In this document: positions 34,172 through 64,000 of the stretch, piece after piece
How the letters are laid out: each line of letters starts with the position of its first letter
How positions within the stretch are numbered: the stretch's first letter is position 1
Source of the DNA: Escherichia phage Es2
DNA length: 64,000 bases
Reading direction: 5' to 3' (one strand)
Sequence record: OR515477.1
Notes under the pieces: generated by a model
The model's database searches: none
Told to the model about the DNA's origin: nothing
Seen by the model: only the letters and a program-made list of their open reading frames with translations
Made by a program: the position numbers and the translations under genes

Positions 34172-34180
34172 CCAAACAAT

Positions 34181-34446: not shown

Positions 34447-34447
34447 T

Positions 34448-34523: not shown

Positions 34524-34530
34524 CCAAATT

Positions 34531-34601: not shown

Positions 34602-34623
34602 CCAATTAACTCAAAATAAGGAA

Positions 34624-34983: not shown

Positions 34984-35004
34984 TGCTTAATTTCTTGTTA
35001 TAAT
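34976..35004 (+). promoter_or_regulatory. early-type sigma70 promoter
   Basis: TTGCTT, 17 bp, TATAAT; followed by hairpin GATGAGGA-GAAA-TCCTCATC. Confidence 0.55.
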
Positions 35005-35242
35005 ATTTATATAAATTGATGAGGAGAAATCCTCATCATAGTTCACTAAGGTATTAGCTCGACCTAGGACTGGCTGCCAAAAAGCACGATCCCTACGATT
35101 CGGGAAAAGTTCTAGATTGGTCCACTAGATTCAGCGGCAACTGAATAGTGTATTGGGTTTGCGAGATGACGTAGTTCCTTCCGCTCTAAGCGAAGGTGCT
35201 GTAGTTACGCCGAGCTAATAGCCTTAGTAAACTAAAGAATTT

Positions 35243-35318
35243 GGGGAATGGGTCTGCATGGAGTGGACACCTCGCTTGCACCGAGGACATCAGAACGGTT
35301 CGATTCCGTTATTCTCCA
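35243..35318 (+). tRNA. tRNA-Ala (anticodon TGC)
   Basis: Acceptor GGGGAAT/ATTCTCC, anticodon stem-loop CCTCG-CTTGCAC-CGAGG, T-arm AACGG-TTCGATT-CCGTT, CCA encoded. Confidence 0.7.
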
Positions 35319-35326
35319 CCAAATAC

Positions 35327-35400
35327 GCGTGATTGATGGAATGGGCATACATACCGTCCTTAGAAGTCGGGTTTTGAGGGTTCGAATCCCTTGTCACGCA
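35327..35400 (+). tRNA. tRNA with anticodon TAG (Leu-decoding; class I architecture)
   Basis: Acceptor GCGTGAT/GTCACGC, anticodon loop CTTAGAA, short variable arm, T-arm GAGGG-TTCGAAT-CCCTT, CCA encoded. Confidence 0.55.
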
Positions 35401-35515
35401 CCAAATTTGATGGTCAGAGTAAATTAAACCTACTATCTCGGTTGAGCTGTTTTAATGGGTTCGAATCCCAGCGGGGCGTAACTGCCTGGTGTGATAGAGG
35501 CATCATCTTATTATT

Positions 35516-35603
35516 GGAAGAGCAAATCGAATTGGCGACGAAAACCGCTTGGAAAGTGGCTGACTGGTAAAACGGCTTGAGAGTTCAAATCTCTCCTCTT
35601 CCG
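35516..35603 (+). tRNA. tRNA-Ser (anticodon GGA)
   Basis: Acceptor GGAAGAG/CTCTTCC, anticodon loop TTGGAAA, 18 nt variable arm, T-arm GAGAG-TTCAAAT-CTCTC, CCA encoded. Confidence 0.7.
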
Positions 35604-35618
35604 CCAAACAATTTATAT

Positions 35619-35710
35619 GGTAGGTCAATCCAATGGCTGGCGCTGGACTCCGACTTGAAATCGGTTGATCGTAGTGATACGGTGTAAGGGTTCGATCCCC
35701 TTACCTACCT
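35619..35710 (+). tRNA. tRNA-Ser (anticodon TGA)
   Basis: Acceptor GGTAGGT/ACCTACC, anticodon loop CTTGAAA, 20 nt variable arm, T-arm AAGGG-TTCGATC-CCCTT, CCA encoded. Confidence 0.7.
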
Positions 35711-35716
35711 CCAAAT

Positions 35717-35850
35717 CTTGAAGTATGCCGGAATCGGTAGACGGGGCTGCCTAAAAGGTTTATAGGGAACATCCACTCCCTGCAACATACCTCATAAAGC
35801 GGCTGAGATAAATGGTCTATCTCGTGAAGGTTCAAGTCCTTCTGCTTCTT
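35717..35850 (+). ncRNA. long tRNA-like element (~134 nt)
   Basis: Acceptor-like pairing TGAAGTA/TGCTTCT (6 of 7), T-arm GAAGG-TTCAAGT-CCTTC, internal D-arm-like hairpins; no CCA, no ORF. Confidence 0.35.
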
Positions 35851-35964
35851 GATACATCTATGGCTCAAAGTGTAACGGTGCTATTTGATGCTCTTGGTAA
35901 GACTTCCCCGACATGCGTTCGGGAGTAAGCTGCTAAGACTAGAGTAGAAGAGTTTCTGAGAGCC

Positions 35965-36084
35965 GCCACAATTGAAAATTCGTACTCGTCTTGAGCTGCG
36001 CGCAATAGGAGATAACTTGATTAGTATTCTAGAACATGCTAATTGAGGAAGGTTTCGCTAACCCTGCGAGTTTTCAATTGTGGC
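35965..36084 (+). ncRNA. long hairpin element (18 bp stem enclosing ~85 nt) abutting tRNA-His
   Basis: GCCACAATTGAAAATTCG (35965-35982) pairs with CGAGTTTTCAATTGTGGC (36067-36084); the 3' arm overlaps the tRNA-His acceptor. Confidence 0.4.
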
Positions 36085-36153
36085 TATATCATAATTGGTT
36101 AATGATCCTGATTGTGAATCAGGCCTATGTGGATTCGAATTCCACTAGCCACC
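36080..36153 (+). tRNA. tRNA-His (anticodon GTG)
   Basis: Acceptor GTGGCTA/TAGCCAC, D-arm TCAT..ATGA, anticodon stem-loop CCTGA-TTGTGAA-TCAGG, T-arm GTGGA-TTCGAAT-TCCAC, CCA encoded. Confidence 0.7.
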
Positions 36154-36180
36154 CCAAATTAACTTAAATAGGAAATAAAT

Positions 36181-36387
36181 ATGGCTGATTTCTGCAAACA
36201 ATGCTCCATTGATATGTGGGGTAAAGATACTGGTGATCTTTCTGGTTTGATTACAGAAGCTGAAGTTAAAGAAGGCTACGGTGCTGCTGTGATCTGCGAA
36301 GGATGCGGAGTTATTCGAGTAGATCATGAAGGCAAACGTTTAGAAGATCCAAAAAGTATTAAGAAGAAGGTTAGCCAAGTAGGTTAA
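36181..36387 (+). CDS. small zinc-ribbon protein
   Basis: CKQCS...CEGCG motifs, 68 aa; 3' end overlaps tRNA-Gln. Confidence 0.5.
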   Translation: MADFCKQCSIDMWGKDTGDLSGLITEAEVKEGYGAAVICEGCGVIRVDHEGKRLEDPKSIKKKVSQVG

Positions 36388-36437
36388 GGCTGGGGTCTCT
36401 GAAATCCTGATCAGTGGTTCGAATCCACTACCTTCTG
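36365..36437 (+). tRNA. tRNA-Gln (anticodon CTG)
   Basis: Acceptor AGAAGGT/ACCTTCT, anticodon loop CTCTGAA, T-arm AGTGG-TTCGAAT-CCACT, CCA encoded. Confidence 0.6.
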
Positions 36438-36446
36438 CCAAACAAT

Positions 36447-36521
36447 TGGGGATTAGCTTAGCTTGGCCTAAAGCTTCGGCCTTTGAAGTCGAGATCATTG
36501 GTTCAAATCCAATATCCCCTG
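36447..36521 (+). tRNA. tRNA-Gln (anticodon TTG)
   Basis: Acceptor TGGGGAT/ATCCCCT, D-arm GCTT..AAGC, anticodon stem-loop TCGGC-CTTTGAA-GTCGA, T-arm ATTGG-TTCAAAT-CCAAT, CCA encoded. Confidence 0.65.
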
Positions 36522-36534
36522 CCAGCTAAATTAA

Positions 36535-36607
36535 TGCGTGATTAGTTCAGTGGCTAGAATAACTGGCTTCCAACCAGTAGACACGAGTTCGACTCTCGTA
36601 TCCCGCA
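36535..36607 (+). tRNA. tRNA-Gly (anticodon TCC)
   Basis: Acceptor GCGTGAT/ATCCCGC, anticodon stem-loop ACTGG-CTTCCAA-CCAGT, T-arm ACGAG-TTCGACT-CTCGT, CCA encoded. Confidence 0.7.
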
Positions 36608-36624
36608 CCAAATAAGGAAACGTT

Positions 36625-36846
36625 ATGCACGTTTTTGAGTTTCGTAATAAAAATACTGATAAGCGAGTTATCATTATTGGAGAAACATACCGAGCATATG
36701 AACAAACTGACGGCTCTGTTATCTTGAATGATGAGAAAGGAGGTTTTAGCTTTTATCCAGAAGAACCTTATGAAGAGTTTCGTACTAAGTTTCTTTTACC
36801 AGACTGGCTAGCAGTAGCCGAGCAACGAGAATCCGAAGATGGCTGA
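36625..36846 (+). CDS. hypothetical protein
   Basis: 73 aa ORF, AAGGAAAC RBS. Confidence 0.5.
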   Translation: MHVFEFRNKNTDKRVIIIGETYRAYEQTDGSVILNDEKGGFSFYPEEPYEEFRTKFLLPDWLAVAEQRESEDG

Positions 36847-37001
36847 TAACCTAAAATTAAGGGTCGACAAACAAAAGAAATACATTGAGGTTGAATTAGG
36901 CGAAGAACGATTAAAGCTAACTTTCGAGTTTCTTCAGCAGTTGGCTATGACAGTTATGACTGATAAGTCTCCTGTTATTGAAAAAGAAATCCCGTTGAAA
37001 T
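36840..37001 (+). CDS. hypothetical small protein
   Basis: About 53 aa ORF (MADNLKLRVDKQKKYIEV...) overlapping the previous stop; coordinates +/-2. Confidence 0.35.
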
Positions 37002-37012
37002 AACGGGATCAT

Positions 37013-37085
37013 CGCTCCTAAAGCATTGCTGGCGATGCAGTTGCCTTGTAAGCATCTGAACCGGGTTCGATTCCTGGTGGGAGCA
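37013..37085 (+). tRNA. tRNA-Thr (anticodon TGT)
   Basis: Acceptor GCTCCTA/TGGGAGC, D-arm GCAT..ATGC, anticodon loop CTTGTAA, T-arm CCGGG-TTCGATT-CCTGG, CCA encoded. Confidence 0.65.
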
Positions 37086-37103
37086 CCAAATTTAAAAATT
37101 CAT

Positions 37104-37132
37104 TTGCTTTCTCTCTTATTTATTGTTATAAT
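37104..37132 (+). promoter_or_regulatory. early-type sigma70 promoter
   Basis: AAAAATTCATTTGCTT, 17 bp, TATAAT. Confidence 0.6.
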
Positions 37133-37162
37133 ATTCATATAAATTAATGAGAGGGAAGCCAA

Positions 37163-37456
37163 ATGAAACGTTATCTTTCTGTTGTGTTCCAAACTGGTGG
37201 TCAACGCTATACTTACGAATTTCCTGGCTCTTGGAAGATCAAAGAAGGTGATCAAGTAGTAGTGTTAACACCGCGTGAGGGTTTTAAGGTAGTAACGGTT
37301 AAGCAAGTATTTCCAAAAGAGCGTGAACCAGCTAAAGGCATTCGCTATAAGATGATTCATGGTGTAGTTCGTCAAGTACCACGAGCGGAAGTCGAAATCA
37401 AAGTAGATAAAGATGGTAAACTTAAATATACCTCTTGCTTAGACGAGTTGCTATAA
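37163..37456 (+). CDS. hypothetical protein
   Basis: 97 aa ORF after promoter 37104-37132. Confidence 0.5.
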   Translation: MKRYLSVVFQTGGQRYTYEFPGSWKIKEGDQVVVLTPREGFKVVTVKQVFPKEREPAKGIRYKMIHGVVRQVPRAEVEIKVDKDGKLKYTSCLDELL

Positions 37457-37662
37457 TGAGGATTACTTTTACAGAAAAGATCATGAGTAATGGTGTTATG
37501 ATCATTACCGCATGGGATGGTAATCAGTGGTGTAGTGTTTCAGGTATTAAGCCTGAAGAACAAACACTAGATAATATCTCAAAGATTAAGCGAAGAATGA
37601 CAGAACGTGCACGACTTCCAGGTGCACCTAGAAATGGCAAACGTTCTGCTGCAAAATGTTAA
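37456..37662 (+). CDS. hypothetical protein
   Basis: 68 aa ORF starting at overlapping TAATG. Confidence 0.45.
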   Translation: MRITFTEKIMSNGVMIITAWDGNQWCSVSGIKPEEQTLDNISKIKRRMTERARLPGAPRNGKRSAAKC

Positions 37663-37663
37663 T

Positions 37664-37737
37664 GCTTCGGTAGCTTAGCGATCTAAAGCACTCGGCTGAT
37701 AACCGAGAGATCGGGGGTTTAAATCCCTCCCGGAGTA
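37664..37737 (+). tRNA. tRNA-Ile (anticodon GAT)
   Basis: Acceptor GCTTCGG/CCGGAGT, D-arm GCTT..AAGC, anticodon stem-loop CTCGG-CTGATAA-CCGAG, unusual T-loop TTTAAAT, CCA encoded. Confidence 0.7.
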
Positions 37738-37836
37738 CCAAATTTAGGAATTAAGACTATGCGTCCAGGAAAGTTTAAAAAAGCTAATTGGTCTAAAGAG
37801 TATAAAGAATACTTACTTAGTCTAGTAAAACATAAT

Positions 37837-37909
37837 AGTTAGTTGGCAGAGTGGTTATGCACCTCCTTCATACGGAGCGACTACAGTGGTTCAAATCCAC
37901 TACTAACTA
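37837..37909 (+). tRNA. tRNA-Met/Ile2 (anticodon CAT)
   Basis: Acceptor AGTTAGT/ACTAACT, anticodon loop TTCATAC, T-arm AGTGG-TTCAAAT-CCACT, CCA encoded. Confidence 0.65.
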
Positions 37910-37949
37910 CCATTAAAAGAGCTAGAGATAGCTAACTTTAGGAGCAGCT

Positions 37950-53475: not shown

Positions 53476-53822
53476 TGATATTTGGTAAAACAAAAATAGC
53501 CCCTGCTGGGGAAAATTTAATTACTCTTAGCCTCTACTATAAGGATGAAAATGTAGAAATAGAAACATTAGAGTATGTTCTTATAAATACTAATAAGCCT
53601 AAAATAGGAGAGTTACTTGGTATAATCTCTAATATCTCTGATAGGGAAGATATTCCAAGTATAACACCAAAGAATATAGCTCACTTAGCACAACAATTAG
53701 GAATCTTGTGGTATAAAGTAGATCTTCCAGCTAAAGAAAGAACCAAAGGAACCTTTGCAGAGATCGCAAGAAAACCTAAGTCAGAAAAGAAAGAAACAGG
53801 GGAGCAAGCGTCTGATATATGA
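53475..53822 (+). CDS. hypothetical protein
   Basis: 115 aa ORF. Confidence 0.5.
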   Translation: MIFGKTKIAPAGENLITLSLYYKDENVEIETLEYVLINTNKPKIGELLGIISNISDREDIPSITPKNIAHLAQQLGILWYKVDLPAKERTKGTFAEIARKPKSEKKETGEQASDI

Positions 53823-54532
53823 TTAAAGAAGCCGAAAAATTAAAACGTCTCATCCAGCTAGCGCGGGGTGCTACACAAAAGAGTCTTTCCCAGCTAACTA
53901 ATGAAGAAAAATATGCAGTAATGTTTTTAGGAGATCATTATCCTGCTAGGTGGGATAAAGGTAAGATCAAGTATGATCGTGATGCAAAACAAGTTGTTTG
54001 GTCAGGCTCATATGTAGAAGTGAATAAAGCATTAAAGGCTTTAGATCCTGAAGCAAAAGGTTTCTCTTCTAATGCTATTCATATTCTAATTGATGAAGAT
54101 CTCCCAAGATTTAAGGAAGCATCATTTAAAGAAGCATTAGCTAGTGAAGATCTTATTCCTTTTAAACACGGTAAGTATGCACATCTTCCACCACTAGAAA
54201 AAGAGAAACCTACTCTAGTTAAAGATGAAGTTTATCGTGGGATTGGCACAATGCTAGCGAGTTTGACTGTAGCTCTCCATAAAGATCTAGAGTTAACGCC
54301 CCTAGAAAACGCTGTGCATTTCATGTGCCATAAGTACGAGGATACATTTAAAGAGCTATGTAAGTCGCTAGGAATGCCAAGTTACACGATATTAAACTAT
54401 GCTCCTGAATATACTAGAGCAGCTCGTGGAACTATGGATTACGATGATACAGGATCCACTGCTTCCTATTTAGCAACTTATATCTACTTCGCATCCTTAG
54501 GTATCAAACTCAAATCCAAGAAGGAGGAATAA
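53819..54532 (+). CDS. hypothetical protein
   Basis: 237 aa ORF; last gene before the repeat region. Confidence 0.5.
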   Translation: MIKEAEKLKRLIQLARGATQKSLSQLTNEEKYAVMFLGDHYPARWDKGKIKYDRDAKQVVWSGSYVEVNKALKALDPEAKGFSSNAIHILIDEDLPRFKEASFKEALASEDLIPFKHGKYAHLPPLEKEKPTLVKDEVYRGIGTMLASLTVALHKDLELTPLENAVHFMCHKYEDTFKELCKSLGMPSYTILNYAPEYTRAARGTMDYDDTGSTASYLATYIYFASLGIKLKSKKEE

Positions 54533-54547
54533 AAGTTAACAAAAAGT

Positions 54548-54576
54548 TCTTGCATTCTCATACCCAAACATGTTAT
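54548..54576 (+). promoter_or_regulatory. sigma70-like promoter (TTGCAT, 17 bp, TATAAT)
   Basis: ttcTTGCATtctcatacccaaacatgtTATAATaatc. Confidence 0.5.
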
Positions 54577-54582
54577 AATAAT

Positions 54583-54750
54583 CTCATAGATTAACAACTA
54601 CTCTAGTTGATTAACTCTAGGGGCGATGATTATTACACGAATGTCTCGTATAGCTTGCGGCCTAGCAACAGCGGTATGACGGCATGAGTACTCACGTAAT
54701 TAATCACGCGCCCACAGGAGAGACTCTCATGAAATTGGGGGTCTCTTTTT
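54583..54750 (+). ncRNA. candidate small RNA unit (promoter to terminator, no ORF)
   Basis: Bounded by promoter 54548-54576 and hairpin AGAGAC...GTCTCT plus TTTTTCTTT (~54713-54750); internal inverted repeat TTAACAACT...AGTTGATTAA. Confidence 0.35.
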
Positions 54751-55042
54751 CTTTATATTATTTAAATATTTTTAATGGCAATATCTGTGTTCAAGATGAT
54801 ACACCTGTTGCCGCTCATCTGCTAGGATGGCACAACACTTTCTTCTAGACTCCTAAGTTTCTAGGAATAGTTGAGCACTAACTCTAGAGTTTACATTAAA
54901 CTTTAAATCTGTTTCTCTAGTCAACTCAGGCGGTTTTCATATTCCTAGAAACTCTAGCAATAGGCGGTTAATACAGGGCGGTTTTAGGGAGGGCGGTTAT
55001 TTCTAGAAGACATTTTTTGAAAACACATTTCTAGAAATTACT

Positions 55043-55643
55043 GTCGTATTTGCACACTGCATTTCTAGAAATTTATGGTCGGATTTGCACAAACGCCTAA
55101 GTTTTTAGGAACATATAATCTCTTGAAAATGGCAGCATTATTTCGGGCCGAAGGCCCGTGATTGCCTGAGTTTTTAGAGCCACAAGAATTTTCACTTGTC
55201 AAGCTATTTTGCCCCATTTAGCAAATAAAATTTTACTTTATCTCCTCTAATCTCAAATTAACCCAAATCTTCTCAACTCTTCCCCAAAATACCCGCAAAT
55301 CAGGTGCTCCGCACCAAACATGCGCCTCTCCCACAGTTCCCCCAAAATTTCTCTCGCTCTCTCAACTTCTCCCCAAACATACACAATCACACACCCTCCA
55401 ATCGAAGCCACAAAAATCTTGTCGGATTCGCACATCTTAATCCTAGAAAAACCGTGTCGGATTTGCACATACCCCACAGGATTCGAACGCAGTTCGAGAT
55501 TGCTGGAGTTTTTAGGAAAATTCATTGTCGGATTCGCACACTATAAAAATTTTTCGGGTCGGATTTGCACACTACCAAAAATTGTCGGATTCGCACATAC
55601 ACGCCCGCACGTAACACCCGTGGAGCAATGTCGGATTTGCACA
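55043..55643 (+). repeat. eight dispersed copies of a 14 bp motif GTCGGATT(T/C)GCACA
   Basis: Copies at about 55043, 55078, 55421, 55456, 55527, 55558, 55584 and 55630; interspersed TTCTAGAA palindromes and GGCGGTT repeats. Confidence 0.7.
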
Positions 55644-55646
55644 AAA

Positions 55647-55668
55647 GCGCAGGGCAATTGCCCTGCGC
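55647..55668 (+). repeat. perfect palindrome GCGCAGGGC-AATT-GCCCTGCGC
   Basis: 9 bp arms with 4 nt centre; read directly. Confidence 0.8.
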
Positions 55669-55669
55669 T

Positions 55670-55900
55670 AAATGAGAATAAAAATAAGAATCATTCTCAT
55701 TTAGAAAGCGGAATGAGAATGATAATAATTCGCATTTAGAAAGCGAAATGAGAATCAATCTCATTTAAGAACGGAAACGAAAATTATTCAGGAAGTGAAA
55801 CGATTCTCATTTAGAAAGTGGAATGATTCTCATTTAGAAAGTGGAATGCAAATGATAATGATTCGCATTTAAGAATGGAAGTGAGAAACACTGTTATTTA
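55670..55900 (+). repeat. tandem ~28-30 bp direct repeats (CTCATTTAGAAAG[CT]GGAATGA-like), about 6 units
   Basis: Repeated ATTCTCATTTAGAAAGCGGAATGAGAATGA-like units with variants; no ORF. Confidence 0.7.
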
Positions 55901-56010
55901 AGTTATCCACAGACTTATCAACAGCACGATTTGACTTGACAAAATTCTAGCCATTTTGAGGCGTTATCAACAGACTTATCAACAGCTTATCCTACTGTAT
56001 AAATATACAG
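55881..56010 (+). repeat. left composite inverted repeat (IR-A and IR-B) with DnaA-box-like TTATCCACA
   Basis: IR-A 55881-55918 is 37/38 identical to the reverse complement of 59205-59242; IR-B 55971-56010 is 38/40 identical to the reverse complement of 59113-59152. Confidence 0.75.
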
Positions 56011-56207
56011 TATTCCTATGCAGTGAATAATTCTAATATACAGCTAAAACGCTCTCAAACGCATTCTAACGCGTTTAATTTTGGTGGGGATACTAAAACA
56101 CGGGCAAAATTGGAGGAGGCTTAGAAATTAGTTAGCTCGCTAACGATCACACAAGGCGACACGTAACATCCTAACCATTAGCAGGCTAACCATCGCGGGC
56201 GCGGTCA

Positions 56208-56228
56208 AATGAGAATGATTCTCATTTG
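56208..56228 (+). repeat. palindrome AAATGAGAAT-G-ATTCTCATTT
   Basis: 10 bp perfect arms; same half-site as the 55670-55900 repeats. Confidence 0.75.
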
Positions 56229-56378
56229 AGAATTGGGGGCACTTCCTGATAGTTGCGCCCCGTGATTATTACAGTAGTGGGCAACCTTTACGCTTTGCCC
56301 ATTCCCGCCACTCATCTTGATGTCTAGACTTGCGACGGCGTACTAAAAACCATTTATACCAGTGATTAAACCATCGTT

Positions 56379-56582
56379 TCATAAATCCTCCTCCGGTAGT
56401 CGGTGCGTGATTTTTTCCTCCTCTCCGTAGGAATCCACTAAATGCTGATAATAACCATCGTGATCATAAATCACTTTATCATATTCGCCACGCTCGACCG
56501 CTTGTCGGTTTTCCGGCGTATCTGGCACGTAAAAAACATCAACCATTGTACTGATTTTGGTTACAACAATTTTATTGCTCAT
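56379..56582 (-). CDS. hypothetical protein
   Basis: 67 aa; last gene of the inverted-repeat-bounded block; GGAG RBS. Confidence 0.45.
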   Translation of the reverse strand: MSNKIVVTKISTMVDVFYVPDTPENRQAVERGEYDKVIYDHDGYYQHLVDSYGEEEKITHRLPEEDL

Positions 56583-56607
56583 AATAACGCTCCGTTATTA
56601 TATAATC

Positions 56608-56952
56608 TCATTGTGCCACCTTTCGAAACGCTGTTTCAATACTTTCCGCAGTTGACTGAATATACGCGCCTTTCATGATCAGGCGCTCAGTGCATACCTT
56701 ACGGAAGATATTAATAAAATCATCTTCATTTTCTGCAATTAACGCTTCACCCATAACCTGAACGTCACAAGATGCAAAGGTCAAAAATTGAAACGCTAGT
56801 TCACGGGCAACGACCTCATTGATTTTATAATGCGCCTTGCCCTCATAAATATTAATAACGCCCTTATATGTTGGGGAAAGCTGATTTAAATAATTTGCTA
56901 ATAATGCTGGGCGGCAATTAGCAATAAAACGATTGCCTTCATAAATAACCAT
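56608..56952 (-). CDS. hypothetical protein
   Basis: Start MVIYEGNRF after GGGAGG; 114 aa. Confidence 0.5.
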   Translation of the reverse strand: MVIYEGNRFIANCRPALLANYLNQLSPTYKGVINIYEGKAHYKINEVVARELAFQFLTFASCDVQVMGEALIAENEDDFINIFRKVCTERLIMKGAYIQSTAESIETAFRKVAQ

Positions 56953-57079
56953 TTGACAGCCTCCCAATTAGATAGCCAGATAATAACATAAAGATCCCCA
57001 ATGAAAGGGGGTCATTTTTAAATAGGGTGGCGGTAAAACCGCCAGCCATTGCAAGGATGATAACAATAACGCTTTTCAT
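56942..57079 (-). CDS. small hydrophobic peptide
   Basis: 45 aa (MKSVIVIILAMAGGFTATLF...), ATGA coupling to the upstream gene; below track cutoff. Confidence 0.35.
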
Positions 57080-57288
57080 AGTACCCCACGAAACGCAGCG
57101 TAAAAGGTGGCAAAATGTTTAACTGTTTCAGCTATCACGTTGCCGCGCTTGTCAAATTTCTTTTCTGTAACACGAAAGGCATTCTTATTACGTGCTACAT
57201 ATTCAATTTTACAATCTTCCCGCTCGAACGTGTTAACATCCACCAGCTTAAAGCCTTTCGAACGTGCAAGAGAAACATTGCGGATCAT
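57076..57288 (-). CDS. hypothetical protein
   Basis: 70 aa; AGGAGAATAA RBS. Confidence 0.5.
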   Translation of the reverse strand: MIRNVSLARSKGFKLVDVNTFEREDCKIEYVARNKNAFRVTEKKFDKRGNVIAETVKHFATFYAAFRGVL

Positions 57289-57290
57289 TT

Positions 57291-57446
57291 TTATTCTCCT
57301 TTACTAGTCATGCAGCCCAGCAGATAAGAAAATGCAGCGATACCCGCGCCAATAATAACCGCGTGAACACCGAAAGCTATTGCAAAAAGGGATAAAATAG
57401 CGCCCAAGATACCTGCTAGAATAGCTCGAAAAATAACCATTTTCAT
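57291..57446 (-). CDS. small hydrophobic peptide
   Basis: 51 aa (MKMVIFRAILAGILGAILSLFAIAFGVHAVIIGAGIAAF...), GGAGA RBS; below track cutoff. Confidence 0.35.
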   Translation of the reverse strand: MKMVIFRAILAGILGAILSLFAIAFGVHAVIIGAGIAAFSYLLGCMTSKGE

Positions 57447-57486
57447 TCTCCTAGTTTGCGGGGCGAAAGTAACGCCCCGTTATTAC

Positions 57487-57717
57487 TTACATTAAAACAA
57501 TTTTTGCCGCTTGTTTTTTAGTACAGTGTTCCGCTTTCAGGGTATCCAGCAAAAAGCCGGCCGTTTGCTGATCGATTTTATCGGCGTTGTATAGTTCTTG
57601 GATGGTGTTATAAGTTTTAGCAATGCCGAACTCCTGCACCATTTCATGAATGATGGCGCGATTAGATACCCAGCCTTGCGCGGTGAACAGATGACTAGCA
57701 GAAGAATAAGCAACCAT
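57487..57717 (-). CDS. hypothetical protein
   Basis: Start MVAYSSASH after GGAGGT; 76 aa. Confidence 0.5.
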   Translation of the reverse strand: MVAYSSASHLFTAQGWVSNRAIIHEMVQEFGIAKTYNTIQELYNADKIDQQTAGFLLDTLKAEHCTKKQAAKIVLM

Positions 57718-57781
57718 TTTAAACCTCCAAATTTTTGGGAAAATTTTCAACCGTCCTCAAACGGTGTAAAGGCATTATAAC

Positions 57782-57810
57782 AAAAAAGGTCGCCATAAAA
57801 GGCGACCTTT
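57782..57810 (-). terminator. rho-independent terminator (hairpin usable on both strands)
   Basis: AAAGGTCGCC-ATAAAA-GGCGACCTTT with A/T runs on both sides. Confidence 0.65.
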
Positions 57811-57835
57811 ACAAAACTTTACATTAGATTATTTA

Positions 57836-58846
57836 TTACTCGTTTTCGGTGTTAGTGGTAAAAGTAGAAATATCGATACCTTTTACCATTTCATCAATCA
57901 TTTCAGCGATGTTAAAACTTTGCACCATTTCCAACATTGCCGCTTCCATAGCTGCCCCTGCTACCGCTTTCGCTTTCTGGTTGCTTGGGGCATACTGGTC
58001 AACCGCTACGCTCAGCAGGTTGGCAATTACTACTCGACCGATAGGCGTATCAATATAACCTTTAATCATGAACGGTGCTTTTTTAGCCGCTACTTTCGTA
58101 ATTTGAGTCAGTGCAATTTTACCCGCTTCCAGTTTTGCAGCGTTTACAACGGCGGATTTATTAGCGGCAACGATGTTAGCAATCTTGGTCATGGTATTTT
58201 TTCCTTTATTTTCAGTGATTTGAGTATTAACGCTTTGAGTGTTAGAATTTACAGCATGGTTTTCTACGCTGTCAATAATCTGATCTTCATCTTTCCAGAA
58301 AGAAAAACCAGCGCTTTCTATATCCCCATCATAAATATACGGGTATAGCTCCCGTGGTAACAAAAAATTACCGTCGCCATCAAAAGCCATTATACCGGTA
58401 TATTGAGATCCGTCGTTATCCGGCTTATACCATCCAGCGGGTAAATACTTCCAGATAACATCTAAAAATCCCTCAATGCTAGAAAGTCCATTTATCAGAT
58501 CAAGCCCAATAAGCTCAAAACCATTTATATTAAATGATTGACGGCCTGAATTGCTATGATACGCAACAATAGTATTGCCCTGCGCAACAATAAAATCGGT
58601 ATCCGGCCCCGCTCCCCTGCCCGTAAAGATATGGCAATCCCGATTATGTAAAACTAGCGTTGCCCCTTGCTTATATAAGGGTAGAAAACTATCCATATCA
58701 TAGGCGTCATATTCATCAAAAAAGTTTTGATGAATAGTTTCAACCTTGTTAATAAAATGTTTAATGCTGGTTGACTTGCTACCGTCCAGCAGGTTACGCA
58801 ATGCACCTTTTAAGACGGTTGCGTTATCTGGTTTATAAAGCCTCAT
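57836..58846 (-). CDS. hypothetical protein (336 aa)
   Basis: AGGAGG RBS; GC-richer codon usage than the surrounding phage genes; no recognisable motif. Confidence 0.55.
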   Translation of the reverse strand: MRLYKPDNATVLKGALRNLLDGSKSTSIKHFINKVETIHQNFFDEYDAYDMDSFLPLYKQGATLVLHNRDCHIFTGRGAGPDTDFIVAQGNTIVAYHSNSGRQSFNINGFELIGLDLINGLSSIEGFLDVIWKYLPAGWYKPDNDGSQYTGIMAFDGDGNFLLPRELYPYIYDGDIESAGFSFWKDEDQIIDSVENHAVNSNTQSVNTQITENKGKNTMTKIANIVAANKSAVVNAAKLEAGKIALTQITKVAAKKAPFMIKGYIDTPIGRVVIANLLSVAVDQYAPSNQKAKAVAGAAMEAAMLEMVQSFNIAEMIDEMVKGIDISTFTTNTENE

Positions 58847-59112
58847 TTGTTCGGCCTCCTCGTTAATCGGTGAGTGAATGATAAAGGTATTTTCTTTCTA
58901 GGGGCAAATATTATTTTACCTTTTTATTTTCTTTGCCTAACTCCTAGTTTTATGCTAATCGCGCAGCGGTACAGTAAAGAGCAAAACACGGCGAAGCCAC
59001 CAGGGCGACGGGTGAAGGCTTTACTTTAATATTACCCCACTGCATTTAGCTCGTTAGAAAGCGATTTAGGCCGCTTAAAATTGATTGCAGTTGTTAACAC
59101 TACCTTTTTACC

Positions 59113-59242
59113 CTGTATATTTATACAGTAGGATAACCTGTGGATAAGTCTGTGTAAAAGTCCTTATATCGCCGCCTATCATGTCAAGTTATTTTACAAA
59201 ATGTATAAGTCTGTGGATAACTTAAATAATAGTGTTTCTCAC
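59113..59242 (+). repeat. right composite inverted repeat (IR-B' and IR-A') with two TGTGGATAA DnaA-box-like sites
   Basis: Reverse-complement match to 55881-56010. Confidence 0.75.
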
Positions 59243-59410
59243 TAACTAATTTATGCAGTTATTATATCGTAAAATATAGTTAGTTGGCTAATAGGATTTT
59301 AAAGTGATTATGAGTCCGCTAATTAAACCTGAAAAACTCATTAGCTAGTCTGCTAATCATTTTGATATAATATAATAGAGATTAAATTAATAACATAAGG
59401 AAACAATTAG

Positions 59411-59929
59411 ATGCCTAAATATAAACATATAGATTATGACCTTTTTAATAGTTACTTTTATTATGATGAAACATCGTTATCATTTTTACGCTGGCGAGAA
59501 GATCATGCCATCGCTGGTGGTTTAAATGGTAATTATTGGCAAGTTGAATTATTAGATAAAGGACAATTCAAAGTACATAGAATTATTTTTTGTATAATGA
59601 ATGGTGGTATAGATAGCGAGCTAATGATTGATCATATTGATCGTAACCCCCGTAATAATAACATTTGGAATCTTCGCGCGGTTGATAGTTCCCAGAATAA
59701 CTATAATAAGACTCCTAGTGAGTATGAAAACTATAAGCGTGCTAATGGTATCCCTAGAAACATTTACGTTAATAAAATTCGCCCCCGTGATAGTTTCGGG
59801 CGTGATTATTTAACTGCTCAAATTAAGAATCCTATTACTAACAAGCGTGTTAGTAAGTCTGGTTATGATTTACAAGAGTTATTATTATGGCTTGAAGCTA
59901 AAAAAGCTGAATTCGGAATTGTCAATTAA
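59411..59929 (+). CDS. HNH endonuclease
   Basis: DHIDRNPRNNNIWNLRAV HNH motif; AAGGAAAC RBS. Confidence 0.65.
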   Translation: MPKYKHIDYDLFNSYFYYDETSLSFLRWREDHAIAGGLNGNYWQVELLDKGQFKVHRIIFCIMNGGIDSELMIDHIDRNPRNNNIWNLRAVDSSQNNYNKTPSEYENYKRANGIPRNIYVNKIRPRDSFGRDYLTAQIKNPITNKRVSKSGYDLQELLLWLEAKKAEFGIVN

Positions 59930-60875
59930 TTTATTTTATAAATTAACTCGTTTAGTCTTGATTTTTAAAAGTCAAGACCTTTTTCAACTATTTTTCAATT
60001 TTGCGGTTGTTAAATATTTGTTAAACCGAAAATAAGCCGCCTAAAACGCCCCAGAACGCGATGAAAGTTTTAGTCATGCCATTGCATTGCCTACCCTCGT
60101 TTATCGCTACCACGAGCTTTTTAGATTTTGTCAAGTAGGGGAAAGCAAATATAAATGAAAAAATTACTTGCCTATCTGCTATGTTTTGTGGTATTCACGC
60201 GCCCGTTTCTTTTAATTTTAGTGTGCCGCGCCCTAGTCGCCGCACGCCGTCCGGTGAATCGTGTCTTTACGTTTCTTTACAAAAATAAGGTTGCGCCATT
60301 TTCGGGAATCCCCTATTATTTATCACGTAGGGCGGCAATGACGAACTACACGGCGGGAAGTTTACCGCCACGCTCTTTAAAAATTGGGTATATCTTAAAG
60401 CCTATCGGCGGTAAACTTATTCATTATAAGGAATCGACGATATGAAACAAACGCTTTTGATAACTGGTAAACCAGCTAAAAAATTAGATGGTACTACTAA
60501 AAAATTGTTGACAGTAGCGCAAAGATCCATAAGATATAGATTCACGCAGTACAAGAAAGGCCGCCAGCAAGGTTTAGAAATGATCTGGCGAAATATTATG
60601 ATTGACCTGAAAGAAAATCATAAAAAACTGCAAAAAATTGTTTGACACCCTAGCCGATAGGCTTTAAGATGTACCCAGTTCGATGAGAGCGATAACTTGA
60701 TACAATTTGACGGTCGGTGCTTACCATAATGCATCCCGCCCCCTAACTGGGATATAGCGGCCTGAGTGGAGTTCTTTAAATTGATTATAATGGCGAGCGG
60801 ATTGTTACTTATTACCTGCTACTATTTTCTAGTAGGTAATGCGAAACAATCCCCTAAATAACTGGAGTTTATACT

Positions 60876-61127
60876 ATGCAAAACGTTACTAATGCGCCGA
60901 AAATTGGTCAATCCGTTTTTATCCCTTTCGTTACCAAAACGGATGAATTAACCGGAAAAGCCGAACGTATTAAAGGTGCGGCGCTTATGCCGTTCGATAC
61001 AATCGACGCGGTATACGCTGAAAATGAACGCAGTAACAACGGCAAGCCGATTTATAACGTTCGCGTTAAATCCGGCGACGTTGTAAAGGTTGTTCAACGC
61101 AACGAAAAATGGGAAGCTGTACTGTAA
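60876..61127 (+). CDS. hypothetical protein
   Basis: 83 aa ORF with TGGAG RBS. Confidence 0.5.
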   Translation: MQNVTNAPKIGQSVFIPFVTKTDELTGKAERIKGAALMPFDTIDAVYAENERSNNGKPIYNVRVKSGDVVKVVQRNEKWEAVL

Positions 61128-61225
61128 TCTAGTGTTAACTTTATATTCCCCTGAAATATGGGGAATATAACGATTAACATTAGTTAATCATAATCCCTTA
61201 AATTAAACTAATAGGAGTTTATATC

Positions 61226-61633
61226 ATGACTAACGCAAAAACCGCAAAATTCGCATGGAATGAAGAAAACACCCAAAAAGCTGTTACCATGTACCAGCAG
61301 TTAATCAACGAAAACGGTTTAGATTTCGCAAATAGTGACGGGCTGAAAGAGATTGCAAAAGCAGTAGGCGCGGCTTCTCCCGTATCCGTTCGCTCAAAAT
61401 TGACCAGTGCAAAAGCCTACCAGAAAAGCGATAAGCCGCGTAAAGTTGGCGGCGGCAGTTCTGTACGCAAAGCGCATTATGTGCGTGTTATTGCTAAACA
61501 TGCCATTGATTCCGGCATTATCAAAGACGCTGACGATCTGGCATCACTGGAAAGTGCAAAACTTGAAACGCTGGACGCGGTAGCGCAATTGCTAGGCGTT
61601 GCCGATGAAGTGAAACAAGCCGCAGGCGAATAA
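61226..61633 (+). CDS. hypothetical protein
   Basis: 135 aa ORF with AGGAG RBS. Confidence 0.5.
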   Translation: MTNAKTAKFAWNEENTQKAVTMYQQLINENGLDFANSDGLKEIAKAVGAASPVSVRSKLTSAKAYQKSDKPRKVGGGSSVRKAHYVRVIAKHAIDSGIIKDADDLASLESAKLETLDAVAQLLGVADEVKQAAGE

Positions 61634-61722
61634 TAGTTATACATTGCCCTTCCTAGTGGGAGGGCAATAATATAACTGTTTAGCGATAGTTATTTTCTTC
61701 CCTTAAATCAGGAGTTTTAAAA

Positions 61723-61920
61723 ATGATTTTCTTTCCTACTGAATCATTAATTTTAGGCTTGTTTATTATGGCGGCCTCATTATTGTTCGCTTATTTTCAA
61801 AATGATTTAGATTCATATTATTTTAAACGTAAATCTAAGTTAGCAAAGCGTTTAGGTCTGATTTGTTTTATTGCCGCCGTTGCTTGTGGTGTTAGTTCTA
61901 GCCTTATGCCTTTAAATTAA
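61723..61920 (+). CDS. small membrane protein
   Basis: 65 aa, two hydrophobic segments. Confidence 0.45.
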   Translation: MIFFPTESLILGLFIMAASLLFAYFQNDLDSYYFKRKSKLAKRLGLICFIAAVACGVSSSLMPLN

Positions 61921-62016
61921 TGTTGCAAATTATAACGCCTATTATTCAAGGCGTTATATTTGGCAATATTTGCCAATAACAAACGTTTTTTAATCCCTTT
62001 AATGGAGTTTATTACT

Positions 62017-63681
62017 ATGATTATTTCCGCAGAAAAACAAACCGTTATCCTGAAAATGGCCGCTGACTTTAATTTCTATGGTAAACGTCTGCGCGCCACT
62101 AAACTGGAGGTCTGCGACGATATATCAAAAGCGGTCTACGATACAACAAAACACTCGACCGCCATTTGTGATTGGCTGGAAGCAAATAAACCAGTTAAAC
62201 CAAAAGCTGCAAAAGTAGCAAAAGCTATTAAAAACGATGAGCGCCCCGAAGCGGCTGGGATCGTTTCTAGCACGGTTGAACAGTGGGAAGTAAAACAAGG
62301 CAAACGCTTTATTATTACGTCGATTCAGAATAATACTTTCCCGCATAAAAACTTTTTGGCCTCGCTTGAACAGTATGCTAAATACATCGGCGCTGATTTG
62401 CTTGTTTCTAAGTATATTTATAATAAAAACGGCTTCCAAAATGGTGAAGGTGCGGATGGAATCAAATATGATTCCGCGTTCGATAAGTATATTTGCAGCA
62501 AAAACGTGTTTTTAAACAACCGCCGTTTTGCTTTCATGGCTGAAATTAACGTTTTGCCTACCGCAGATTATCCGCTTTCTGGATTCGCTGAAACTGCAAC
62601 GGCGCTTAATCTTGAAGGTCTGGCAATTGGTCACGCTAAAATCACCGCCGAAAGCGTGCCAGCTTTAAAAGGTGAAGTAGTACGCCGCATGTACTCAACC
62701 GGAACGGCAACGCTAAAAAACTACATTCAGCAGAAAGCAGGGCAAAAAGCGGAAGCGCTGCATAACTTCGGTGCGCTGATTGTTGAGTTCGACGAAGACG
62801 GTGAGTTTTTTGTACGCCAGCTTGAAACAATGGACGAAAGCGGGGTGTTTTATGATCTGAATGTTTGCGCTACTCCCGCAGGATGCTATGAAACATCGGG
62901 GCATGTTTTAGGTTTACAATATGGCGACATCCACGCAGAAAAATTAGATGATGATTGTGCCGTTGCGTCATGGGCTGGCGAAAATAGCTTGCTTGATATT
63001 CTTAAACCAAAATATCAGTTTATCCATGACGTTCACGATTTTACATCTCGCAATCATCATAATCGTGCGTCCGGTGTATTCCTAGCGAAACAGTACGCCG
63101 CCGGACGTGATAAAGTTCTGGATGATCTTATCGATACGGGGCGCGTGCTGGAATCAATGGAACGTGATTTTAGTCAAACGATCATTGTTGAATCGAATCA
63201 CGATTTGGCGCTATCCCGTTGGCTGGATGATCGTAATGCTAACATTAAAGACGATCCAGCAAACGCCGAACTATATCACCGCCTGAATGCTGCAATTTAC
63301 GCGGCAATCGGTGAACACGACGAAACGTTTAACGTGTTAGATTATGCGCTGCGCAAGGTTGCAGGTTGCGAGTTTAACGCCATTTTCCTAACAACTGACC
63401 AATCATTTAAAATTGCAGGCATCGAGTGTGGCGTACACGGTCACAACGGCATTAACGGAAGCCGTGGCAATCCTAAACAGTTTAAGAAATTGGGCAAACT
63501 GAACACGGGGCATACGCATACGGCAAGCATTTACGGCGGGGTATACACCGCTGGCGTGGCTGGTAGTCTGGACATGGGTTACAACGTTGGCGCGTCAAGC
63601 TGGACGCAAACGCATTTAATTACCTATGCAAACGGTCAGCGCACTTTGATTGACTTTAAAAACGGTAAATTCTTTGCGTAA
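62017..63681 (+). CDS. A1: A1-like pre-early protein with calcineurin-like phosphoesterase motifs
   Basis: GDIHAE, ESNHD, GHNG and GHTHT metallophosphoesterase motifs; size ~554 aa; gene symbol assigned by analogy to T5 A1 from memory. Confidence 0.5.
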   Translation: MIISAEKQTVILKMAADFNFYGKRLRATKLEVCDDISKAVYDTTKHSTAICDWLEANKPVKPKAAKVAKAIKNDERPEAAGIVSSTVEQWEVKQGKRFIITSIQNNTFPHKNFLASLEQYAKYIGADLLVSKYIYNKNGFQNGEGADGIKYDSAFDKYICSKNVFLNNRRFAFMAEINVLPTADYPLSGFAETATALNLEGLAIGHAKITAESVPALKGEVVRRMYSTGTATLKNYIQQKAGQKAEALHNFGALIVEFDEDGEFFVRQLETMDESGVFYDLNVCATPAGCYETSGHVLGLQYGDIHAEKLDDDCAVASWAGENSLLDILKPKYQFIHDVHDFTSRNHHNRASGVFLAKQYAAGRDKVLDDLIDTGRVLESMERDFSQTIIVESNHDLALSRWLDDRNANIKDDPANAELYHRLNAAIYAAIGEHDETFNVLDYALRKVAGCEFNAIFLTTDQSFKIAGIECGVHGHNGINGSRGNPKQFKKLGKLNTGHTHTASIYGGVYTAGVAGSLDMGYNVGASSWTQTHLITYANGQRTLIDFKNGKFFA

Positions 63682-63735
63682 TTAAATTATTACCCTAGCG
63701 GCTTGAAATACAGCCGCTATTATAGGAGTCAAAAA

Positions 63736-63993
63736 ATGAAAGTTACATTACCCAAAACATTAGACGAAAAAGCGTTTATTTCCCCCGATGAAATGGAATC
63801 CGATAAAGTTTACAGCTTCGGGCCTATCCTAGCCGCCAAAACTAATACTGATGGAATTATTACAGTCGATTATCGTGATAATGATATTGTTCCCTTTGAC
63901 GATGATGACGCTTTTTACGAGTGGTTAAGCGATAATAATTTACCCGTAAGTGGTGAATTAACGCCGTATCAGATGCAAATCATTATCAAATAA
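63736..63993 (+). CDS. hypothetical acidic protein
   Basis: Start MKVTLPKT with AGGAG RBS; 85 aa. Confidence 0.45.
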   Translation: MKVTLPKTLDEKAFISPDEMESDKVYSFGPILAAKTNTDGIITVDYRDNDIVPFDDDDAFYEWLSDNNLPVSGELTPYQMQIIIK

Positions 63994-64000
63994 TTTAAAT

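Follow-up and report, generated by a model that had tools for sequence, protein, structure and literature searches.

What sets the right-hand end of this stretch of Escherichia phage Es2 DNA (sequence record OR515477.1) apart from the DNA that precedes it? The window, by which we mean the whole stretch of 64,000 nucleotides analysed here on one strand, had been described from its letters alone, and this sequence-only reading held that from 56011 onward the DNA is richer in G+C and differs in its codon preferences, as might be expected of a separately evolving pre-early or terminal-repeat region or, alternatively, of DNA acquired horizontally. Homology to sequenced relatives indicates that positions 55177–64000 are almost certainly the 8.8-kb inner portion of a long direct terminal repeat from a Tequintavirus (a T5-like phage) in reverse orientation, that is, first-step-transfer (FST) or pre-early DNA. 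What changes at the edge of this repeat is not the G+C content; the shift is a change of regime in synonymous codons and dinucleotides that starts exactly at the repeat boundary.

As an element, the repeat is already known in every structural respect, being a textbook feature in a phage ~92% identical to its sequenced relatives. In the literature that we searched, the coverage of which is incomplete, we found no published account of class-specific codon usage or of a CpG/GCGC island in T5-like repeats. The explanation that we favour, taken as a whole (identity, regime change and cause), is probably correct. Its causal part, namely selection on pre-early genes that are expressed by an unmodified host before the phage tRNA genes enter, is put forward more tentatively, as a plausible cause to which we would give slightly less than an even chance.

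Identity of the Right End and Its Inner Boundary

Upon searching with megablast, the interval 56011–64000 matches the ends of Tequintavirus genomes at 91–92% identity over 96–99% of its length. The block comprising A1, A2 and the injection-stop region finds matches in 538 phage records, with at least 80% query coverage in 156 of them; FFH1, NG_A1 and NBSal005 are 91–92% identical to the repeat, and T5, by MAFFT alignment, is 86% identical. The preceding 12 kb (44–55 kb) are colinear with these phages' early region, NBSal005 and T5 included, and hold the genes for holin, endolysin and a NinI-like phosphatase. Because both the interval and these preceding 12 kb align there, the window corresponds approximately to the reverse complement of positions 2–66 kb of a T5-like genome.

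The inner boundary can be placed with precision. The left terminal repeat of T5 (NC_005859, 1–10219) ends at 10219, which maps by MAFFT to window position 55177, and base 1 of the NBSal005 record aligns to the same position, with the same 1200 bases recurring at its position 110219 at 100% identity. Since the T5 annotation and the NBSal005 record independently agree to the base, the inner boundary of the repeat is 55177, and the start at 56011 given in the sequence-only reading has to be moved 834 nt further left. From there the repeat coincides with an island rich in CpG and GCGC and runs off the end of the window; its outer ~1.6 kb (T5.002 and dmp, the gene for a dNMP phosphatase) would lie beyond position 64000, where dmp is located in FFH1, NBSal005 and T5. 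By homology to T5 and NBSal005, 55177–64000 is expected to be directly duplicated at the other end of the genome, one copy falling within the window.

Of the two origins suggested in the sequence-only reading, the first, a terminal repeat or pre-early segment, is thus borne out for a T5-like genome by the alignment to Tequintavirus genome ends, by the occurrence of A1, A2, hegG and the injection-stop region in T5 order and by the boundary match. The comparison with T5-like terminal repeats that had been suggested as a check establishes homology, every annotated T5 feature having been mapped by MAFFT. In T5 and BF23 the first-step DNA is transferred first, in a two-step injection (PMC10644984), and by homology to these phages the Es2 repeat, too, would enter first, followed by a pause until A1 and A2 have been made.

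Bulk G+C Content

It is in the matter of G+C that the sequence-only reading requires the most qualification. That the right-hand end is "visibly richer in G+C" holds only relative to its neighbours (36.4% at 44–54 kb and 37.0% in the preceding 8 kb); measured against the whole window, the difference is at chance level. The 2-kb sliding profile varies between 0.35 and 0.44 along the window. At 40.0%, 56011–64000 compares with 38.8% for the remainder, a value equalled or surpassed by 105 of 1121 windows of the same size, and the repeat proper (55177–64000) has 39.95% versus 38.9% (z = 0.98), with 67 of 464 size-matched windows that lie clear of it equal or higher. The quantitative G+C profile, which had been named beforehand as what could overturn the claim of a compositional shift, therefore shows bulk G+C to be unexceptional for this window; the codon and CpG shift remains.

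The repeat also contains the lowest G+C content of the right-hand 20 kb. This minimum, 31.3% at 59001–60000, belongs to the homing endonuclease gene hegG and its flanks, and G+C at third codon positions (GC3) in hegG is 0.24. An insertion that splits one ancestral repeat region, hegG is found in only some T5-like phages (bioRxiv 10.1101/866236). Bulk G+C is a poor marker of the terminal repeat.

A CpG and GCGC Island That Begins at the Repeat Boundary

The dinucleotide CpG and the tetranucleotide GCGC, on the other hand, mark the repeat clearly. The observed/expected (o/e) ratio of CpG is 1.351 in the repeat versus 0.801 ± 0.049 (maximum 0.919) in size-matched windows (z = 11), and GCGC occurs 40 times versus 6.9 ± 2.3 (maximum 11; z = 14.6). 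Scored per 1 kb, CpG o/e is at most 0.93 throughout 50.0–55.0 kb and at least 1.08 throughout 55.0–64 kb, AT-rich hegG included, so that the step falls at 55.0–55.5 kb; a GCGC density of at least 4 per kb is reached in 0 of 110 windows placed between 1 and 55 kb. Within the repeat both CpG and GpC are in excess, the words GCGC, CGCG, CGCC and CCGC stand at host-like or higher levels, and the CpG excess is present at all three codon phases. In its tetranucleotide signature the repeat reaches a correlation of 0.46 with E. coli; the rest stands at 0.29, and none of 24 size-matched windows exceeds 0.42. T5 shows the same codon and CpG regime, with a GCGC o/e of 3.3 in pre-early DNA versus 0.6. A separately behaving composition, as the sequence-only reading had it, is what we find: the regime differs from that found elsewhere in the genome, and the difference is kept across the family.

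Codon Usage and Its Likeness to Host Genes

The frequent GCG, CCG and CGC codons that had been picked out by eye are likewise confirmed. Per 1000 codons of a first-pass set of open reading frames (ORFs), repeat versus rest, GCG (25.8/6.3) and CGC (15.8/5.5) are 3–4 times commoner in the repeat and CCG is raised as well (9.1/5.9), as is GCC (17.7/7.3), with AGA moving the other way (4.3/11.3). Once the gene set is refined, synonymous sites have a GC3 of 0.361 versus 0.286 (per-gene Mann–Whitney p = 0.003), with GC1 and GC2 unchanged; in T5 the corresponding GC3 values are 0.365 for pre-early, 0.293 for early and 0.274 for late genes (per-gene p = 2e-4). Pre-early genes favour GCG, CGC, GGC, ACG, ACC and AGC and disfavour AGA, ATA, CTA and other A-ending codons, and the most depleted codons include AGA, ATA, CTA, TCT, ACT, GCT, CCA, ACA, GGA and GTA.

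This usage resembles that of the host. With an E. coli codon reference validated against 50 kb of E. coli K-12 (r = 0.95), relative synonymous codon usage (RSCU) correlates with that of ordinary K-12 genes at 0.74 for the pre-early genes of the window and 0.34 for its early genes, and in T5 at 0.67 for pre-early, 0.34 for early and 0.21 for late genes. When log2(RSCU pre-early/RSCU rest) is regressed on a G or C ending and on E. coli preference at once, both contribute significantly, with a beta of 0.61 (p = 8e-6) for the ending and of 0.40 (p = 1e-6) for the preference, and the enrichment follows E. coli preference inside the A/T-ending (rho 0.65) and the G/C-ending (rho 0.62) codon classes alike.

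The window holds 23 tRNA genes at 27428–37912 on the plus strand, among them Arg-UCU, Leu-UAG, Leu-UAA, Gly-UCC, Thr-UGU, Pro-UGG, Ala-UGC, Val-UAC and two with CAU anticodons. Several of these phage tRNAs match codons that the pre-early genes avoid. For U34 phage tRNAs of multi-isoacceptor families, 7 of 8 codons are depleted (AGA by −1.6 and CTA by −0.9 log2; ACA, CCA, GTA, GGA and GCA). As a single class, the codons cognate to phage tRNAs had to be rejected as a correlate, the Watson–Crick cognates of all phage tRNAs being not significantly depleted (p = 0.35–0.42), and because of this null result any tRNA effect is restricted to the U34 multi-isoacceptor tRNAs and to AGA, ATA and CTA.

The mechanism that we propose follows from the order of events expected for a two-step injection. 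Of the whole genome, the repeat alone would depend on an unmodified host cell for its transcription and translation, since the second-step DNA with the phage's 23 tRNA genes would still be outside when the pre-early genes are expressed. Pre-early codons would then be host-compatible because pre-early expression precedes the entry of the phage tRNA genes, selection keeping these genes fit for the host tRNA pool and near the average composition of host genes. The rest of the genome shows a milder form of the CpG/GCGC/CGCG depletion found in the unrelated phages FelixO1 and N4 and uses A/T-ending codons, several of them cognate to phage tRNAs.

Distant Relatives and Control Phages

Is the regime a peculiarity of Es2 and T5? 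Distant lineages were sampled through the A1 neighbourhoods (loci of 23–34 kb) of Proteus phage M4H10_20, Vibrio phage JSF10, Klebsiella phage Roth50 and Aeromonas phage AhSzq-1, the last of these a poor, fragmented record. A1 is conserved across the Demerecviridae, and in these four it is 34–73% identical to Es2 A1. As in Es2 and T5, early genes are followed by a non-coding gap of 1.7–2.4 kb and then by a pre-early block with A2, A1 and dmp, which in the Proteus and Vibrio phages opens, as in T5, with a divergent arm of small genes. Here, too, the pre-early block stands out, with a CpG o/e of 0.97–1.38 versus 0.56–0.92 and 4.4–5.5 GCGC per kb versus 0.7–1.3. In the Proteus, Vibrio and Klebsiella phages it is within the non-coding gap that the island begins, and where DNA on either side is available (Proteus and Vibrio) it is sharply delimited at both ends.

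In every lineage GCGC, CGCG, CGCC, CCGC and CGGC are relatively enriched 2–6-fold. The tetramers depleted family-wide (AGAG, GAGA, AGAC, AAGA and AGGA) all contain AGA or AGG, and in five lineages taken together, 15 of 15 comparisons show pre-early genes to be short of AGA, ATA and CTA. Unlike in Es2, the GC3 shift in the distant relatives varies, from −0.01 to +0.12. That the signature is kept in Proteus, Vibrio, Klebsiella and Aeromonas relatives with such divergent A1 proteins rules out a historical accident.

The same distribution bears on the possibility that the repeat was acquired horizontally, from the host or from another mobile element, and retains the composition of its donor. The host-like codon and tetranucleotide signatures would suit such an origin, and the small pre-early genes are indeed mosaic among relatives (T5.016 is missing from Es2, one further gene is found in NBSal005 and hegG is patchy). 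A donor is difficult to reconcile, however, with a block that is present in 538 phage records and whose A1 homologues span the whole family, and a megablast search of 5,426 complete E. coli genomes gives 0 matches to it. Among the genes densest in GCGC is A1 (8.1 per kb), which is inherited vertically, and hegG, the sole plausibly mobile gene, is the AT-rich exception. Because the signature recurs in lineages in which A1 is only 34–43% identical, it must be maintained rather than inherited from a recent donor. The suggestion of horizontally acquired DNA is accordingly unsupported, and a horizontally acquired genomic island is essentially excluded by the wide phage distribution, the recurring composition in four distant lineages and the lack of an E. 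coli match.

Control phages show which side of the boundary is the unusual one. Among 136 tetramers, CGCG is the most depleted in non-pre-early DNA by mean log2 o/e over six genomes (o/e 0.30–0.46 in each). In FelixO1 (40–75 kb) and N4 (1–50 kb), CpG o/e is 0.46 and 0.51, GCGC o/e is 0.26 and 0.02, and CGCG o/e is 0.03 in both. These two phages are nearly devoid of GATC, CGCG and GCGC (o/e 0.00–0.26), a depletion far beyond that of the second-step DNA of T5-like phages. Second-step CpG depletion as a trait specific to the Demerecviridae, such as avoidance of A1 targets, is rejected on the grounds that FelixO1 and N4 are even more depleted. Because two unrelated virulent, AT-rich enterobacterial phages share the depletion of CpG words, it is the terminal repeat that is the exception.

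Bacillus phage SPO1 (1–36000) serves as a control of another kind. Like Es2, it has a long direct terminal repeat (13.2 kb) of small, very early host-shutoff genes transcribed by host RNA polymerase, and GC3 in this repeat is above that of the adjacent unique DNA (0.401 vs 0.335). Unlike that of Es2, the SPO1 repeat carries unrelated genes and has no CpG island (CpG o/e 0.49 vs 0.46), with CGCG absent in both parts. To our knowledge, SPO1 has not been described as injecting its DNA in two steps. Since the SPO1 repeat is without a CpG island, the idea that such islands come generically with long terminal repeats bearing host-takeover genes can be set aside.

The SPO1 comparison also enters into the argument over a region-specific bias in mutation or repair, whereby host repair (Ung, mismatch, very-short-patch), not yet shut down when the repeat enters, together with the recombination or gene conversion that the repeats undergo in each cycle, would bring the DNA to a host-like equilibrium richer in GC and CpG. 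Such a bias would readily produce a step at the physical repeat boundary with non-coding DNA included, a G/C-ending effect that is independent of host preference and extends to the host-rare codons CCC and CGG, a likeness to average rather than highly expressed host genes, and the raised GC3 of the SPO1 repeat. It accounts poorly for unchanged GC1 and GC2 and for a bulk non-coding GC that is barely up (0.377 vs 0.364). A pure GC bias, moreover, leaves CpG o/e unraised and entails no specific loss of AGA, ATA and CTA; the Klebsiella phage has the CpG island without the GC3 shift, and SPO1 the GC3 rise without the island. Only the left copy of the repeat, finally, meets an active host, yet the two copies are identical. 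We regard a mutational origin as distinctly improbable.

CpG Words Beyond Codon Usage

Several results weigh against selection for translation by the unmodified host as a complete account. E. coli is the sole host reference, and the gene sets derive from a longest-ORF heuristic within strand blocks, which limits the codon results. Measured against highly expressed E. coli genes (ribosomal proteins, EF-Tu and EF-G), the codon adaptation index (CAI) is 0.406 in pre-early genes versus 0.365 (p = 0.07; T5 p = 0.26), and the RSCU correlation is 0.49 versus 0.39. With so marginal a gain in CAI, strict translational optimisation is rejected; because the advantage nearly vanishes against highly expressed genes, the pre-early genes are better described as resembling average host genes and avoiding rare codons than as classically optimised. 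The GC3 shift is absent in the Klebsiella phage (−0.01), yet present (+0.058) in the Proteus phage, whose host genome is ~39% GC.

To these must be added the behaviour of the CpG words themselves. CpG o/e across codon boundaries (positions 3|1) is 1.33 versus 0.75, with E. coli at 1.05, and GCGC o/e is 2.8 in the repeat as against 1.45 in the host. Codon usage and protein sequence predict 23 GCGC in the repeat genes by within-gene synonymous shuffling and 34 are observed, an excess of z = 3.1 (T5 z = 4.7), the window and T5 being non-independent samples. The early genes have 32 versus a predicted 51 (z = −3.6). Shuffles were confined to single genes since pooled-gene shuffles inflate AT-rich and GC-rich words alike, GC3 differing between genes. 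Non-coding repeat DNA is also rich in GCGC/CGCG in four lineages, with 8 such words in 1.2 kb in the window and 12–22 in ~2 kb in the distant relatives. Several of these word-level tests were picked after the data had been seen. Part of the CpG-word excess is beyond translation: codon boundaries and non-coding repeat DNA show it too, and synonymous shuffling does not remove it.

One might then turn the argument around, taking the richness in CpG, GCGC and CGCG as a DNA-level function of the repeat, of which codon usage would be a by-product, with the words giving a phage protein scattered sites to recognise or to load onto. Candidate functions are A2 binding, an A1-dependent nuclease or transcription shut-off to which first-step DNA would look like that of the host, and nicking of relaxed specificity for repeat–repeat recombination and concatemer formation. 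The excess at codon boundaries argues for such a function, as do the opposite signs that remain after within-gene shuffling (GCGC z = +3.1/+4.7 in pre-early genes vs −3.6/−2.3 in early/late genes), the excess in the non-coding injection-stop regions of four lineages, an island that begins at the repeat boundary rather than at the first gene, and a GCGC density that stays at 4.4–5.5 per kb across lineages of 39–51% pre-early GC (E. coli, 5.6 per kb). According to the T5 annotation, moreover, GCGC is the core of the nick consensus and A1 is needed to shut off host and pre-early genes; the escape of T5 DNA from A1-dependent degradation has been stated to be unexplained (bioRxiv 10.64898/2026.04.02.716235). 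First-step DNA is restriction-sensitive (PMC10644984), so that a passive loss of selection against 4-bp palindromes would be unexpected.

Other findings speak against it. No extended consensus, flank preference or 6-mer around GCGC was convincingly common to five lineages, and a longer motif was rejected on that account. As nick sites the GCGC words fail, too: RGCGC is without strand asymmetry, though nicks are strand-specific, and of the major-nick consensus RAGCGCAGGG the repeat contains a single copy. Each non-coding sample covers a mere 1–2 kb, most of the genic GCGC (23 of 34) is already predicted by codon usage and protein sequence, and any protein that recognises these words is hypothetical. 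We consider a DNA-level function as the primary cause to be unlikely, though it is a serious rival and might also act as a complement, and continue to prefer selection on pre-early genes expressed by the unmodified host.

Restriction-Site Patterns

Restriction systems act on Tequintaviruses only via sites in FST DNA (PMC10644984). Since first-step DNA is the restriction-exposed segment, the richness of the repeat in GCGC and CGCG is counter-intuitive. Other sites follow a different course. Against expectation from base composition (observed/expected), CCWGG is scarce in the repeat (1/8.4, the single site at 59000) and in that of T5 (2/9.8) and about as expected elsewhere, and the same is true of CTNAG (6/31.7) and CCSGG (0/5.6) in the Es2 repeat. 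In shuffles, CCNGG, CTNAG and GGCC score z of about −2 to −3 in the repeat only. The one EcoRI site of the Es2 repeat is at 59909, inside hegG; the T5 repeat has none.

Each lineage has its own palindrome avoidance. Unlike Es2, which avoids CCWGG and CTNAG, the Proteus phage has a pre-early block without CCGG (0/14.4 vs 10/16.2 in the rest). The site avoidance of the repeat fits the published rule of FST-only restriction. GGWCC, GAATTC (EcoRI) and AAGCTT (HindIII) are avoided genome-wide beyond codon usage, with within-gene shuffle z of −3.7 to −5.4 as scored on the early genes of window 1–54600 and on T5 10.9–111.5 kb; EcoRI sites in the window's early genes number 5 versus 17.7 expected.

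The Injection-Stop Region, Nick Sites and Chi

The island begins in non-coding DNA. The injection-stop-signal region (Davison's Repeat Region 3), to which the T5 "injection stop signal" at 9140–10149 maps, occupies 55247–56396 and is built of the direct repeat families D1–D5 and D11 and the inverted repeats I1–I2. It contains copies of TGTCGGATTYGCACA at 55415–55643, palindromic AAATGAGAATNATTCTCATTT repeats at 55682–55904 and 56207, and an IRD'-spacer-IRC' arm at 55880–56010 with DnaA-box-like TTATCCACA/TTATCAACA pairs. The inverted partner of this arm (I1, I2; 77–97% complementary) is the IRC-spacer-IRD arm at 59113–59243, ~3 kb away. Such an architecture of repeat families, palindromes and DnaA-box pairs has been described for the injection-stop region of T5 (bioRxiv 10.1101/866236).

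A homologue of the T5 major nick site known as 7.9%/99.6% lies at 55635–55672 (plus strand) within the palindrome AAAGCGCAGGGCAATTGCCCTGCGCT; the 25-mer around T5 nick 9748 has an exact match at 55635, and the nick itself maps to 55646/55647. Of the four major nick sites annotated in T5, three have the extended consensus (A/G)AGCGCAGGG in common, and these three are conserved at window positions 55646, 42837 and 28528 (plus strand), with 0–2 mismatches over 25 nt. Sites of the GCGCAGG or GCGCAGA type occur in the non-coding, injection-stop-like gap of the Proteus (locus L006, 12661), Klebsiella (L009, 12911) and Vibrio (L008, 11105) relatives, and this recurrence suggests that the 7.9% nick site may be conserved family-wide.

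Chi octamers (GCTGGTGG) occur in the repeat at 57240 (minus strand) and at 59513 (plus strand, inside hegG), and in T5 at 8127 and 8689. The Chi at 57240 is conserved with T5, in the orientation recognised by RecBCD entering from the right genome end. Their numbers are too small for statistics, and we do not treat Chi sites as a meaningful signal.

Gene Map of the Repeat

Feature assignments rest on a MAFFT map of the T5 annotation and on PHROG and Pfam scans, which are in agreement. Read from the inner boundary towards the genome end, the order is that of T5 in reverse, with divergent transcription units and homologues of host sigma-70-type promoters predicted in the repeat. The minus-strand arm opens with homologues of T5.017 (56379–56582, 67 aa; phrog_6973, E = 2.6e-41) and T5.015 (56608–56967, 119 aa; phrog_4379, E = 2.4e-63). 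Unlike in T5, no T5.016 homologue stands between 56582 and 56608, where the MAFFT alignment to T5 collapses to 56598–56599. The T5.014 homologue (57076–57288; phrog_4227, an abasic-site nickase family, E = 6e-49) corresponds to a protein annotated in T5 as an endonuclease that nicks abasic sites generated by host Ung. Homologues of T5.013 (57291–57446) and T5.012 (57487–57750) are together covered by the pair phrog_5607/phrog_5145, and a terminator-like hairpin found by a terminator scan after the latter (57810–57785, minus strand) lies where the T5 terminator 7534–7559 maps (57782–57807). An extra 495-nt gene of NBSal005 (gp111), located there between the T5.011 and T5.012 homologues, is missing at 57750–57836. 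The arm is completed by the T5.011 homologue (57836–58846, 336 aa), a DUF7566 protein (PF24450, E = 2.7e-113).

Between the two arms lies a region of divergent promoters and repeats (58852–59403), with promoter-like matches and with T5 promoters 6411–6489 and 5938–6012 mapped to it as putative homologues of the T5.011 promoter (58852–58930, minus strand) and the hegG promoter (59329–59403, plus strand). On the plus strand, hegG (59411–59929) encodes an HNH homing endonuclease (PF13392 HNH_3, E = 1.4e-12, and the T5 hegG map). It is followed by a T5.009-like ORF (60155–60445; phrog_17446 and T5 map), which has 96 aa versus 35 aa in T5, is spanned by phrog_17446 over residues 1–59 only and overlaps the start of hdi by 4 nt. 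The T5.008/hdi homologue itself (60442–60645) is assigned by phrog_4718 and the T5 map.

TTGACA-type promoters had been reported at 60500–60650, and this proved accurate: TTGACA-16-TAAGAT at 60508–60535 lies inside the homologue of the T5 pre-early promoter P-H22 (60487–60561, plus strand; T5 annotation and map), and the promoter scan gives a second promoter-like TTGACA-17-TAAGAT at 60642–60670 (plus strand). The P-D/E20 region homologue follows at 60696–61019 (plus strand, T5 map). P-H22, P-D/E20, the IRD'/IRC' and IRC/IRD inverted pairs, the DnaA-box pairs, the nick-site palindrome and the boundary to the base are all as in T5.

Further along the plus strand are the T5.007 homologue (60876–61127), a DUF7177 protein (PF23801, E = 1.8e-42); the A2 DNA-binding protein (61226–61633, 135 aa; phrog_1725, E = 8e-52, and the T5 A2 map); and the T5.005 homologue (61723–61920), a small membrane protein (phrog_4820, E = 1.2e-32). 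A1, the DNA transfer and host-DNA-degradation protein, is encoded at 62017–63681 (phrog_1745, E = 5e-245). In the map the T5 start falls at 62017, with the open frame reaching back to a TTG at 61960, and over the full ORF there are 14 GCGC sites, which gives the density cited above. Its product shares 97% amino-acid identity with that of Salmonella phage Th1. Both essential pre-early proteins, A1 and A2, are thus encoded in the repeat. A 96-aa ORF at the position of T5.003 and FFH1 gp003 (63703–63993, plus strand; ORF list and FFH1 annotation) is the last before the window ends. The series T5.003-like ORF, A1, T5.005, A2, T5.007, hdi, T5.009 and hegG, followed by the divergent T5.011–T5.015 and T5.017, is that of T5.

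Just outside the repeat, 53479–54790 has no homology to T5. The unique-side neighbour of the Es2 repeat is not T5.018, which is replaced by an unrelated 237-aa ORF (53819–54532) without a Pfam match; the segment is common to NBSal005 (gp120) and makes a mosaic junction beside the repeat boundary. No structured RNA was found at 54–64 kb among Rfam matches at the gathering threshold.

Implications for T5-Like Phages

At a practical level, CpG o/e and GCGC density locate the repeat boundary within a few hundred bases and could be used on Demerecviridae assemblies that have been deposited without their repeats. In the avoidance by pre-early genes of codons served by later-arriving phage tRNAs, one would have a natural case of expression timing shaping codon usage within one genome. 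Across the family, moreover, and counter to intuition, richness in 4-bp CpG palindromes is confined to the first-step DNA, which is exposed to restriction.

A more far-reaching interpretation, which we judge improbable on present evidence, is that the terminal repeat of the Demerecviridae is a conserved "CpG island" with a role at the level of DNA, its host-like density of CpG words causing a pre-early function to treat first-step DNA as host DNA. Were this so, the function might be one that depends on A1 (degradation or shut-off), the binding of A2, or the nicking or recombination of DNA at the repeats, and second-step DNA, poor in CpG, would be spared. It would then bear on how T5 tells its own unmodified DNA from the host chromosome, a link that is speculative. 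The signature in any event offers a sequence variable with which the functions of A1 and A2, and the discrimination between self and host DNA, may be probed.

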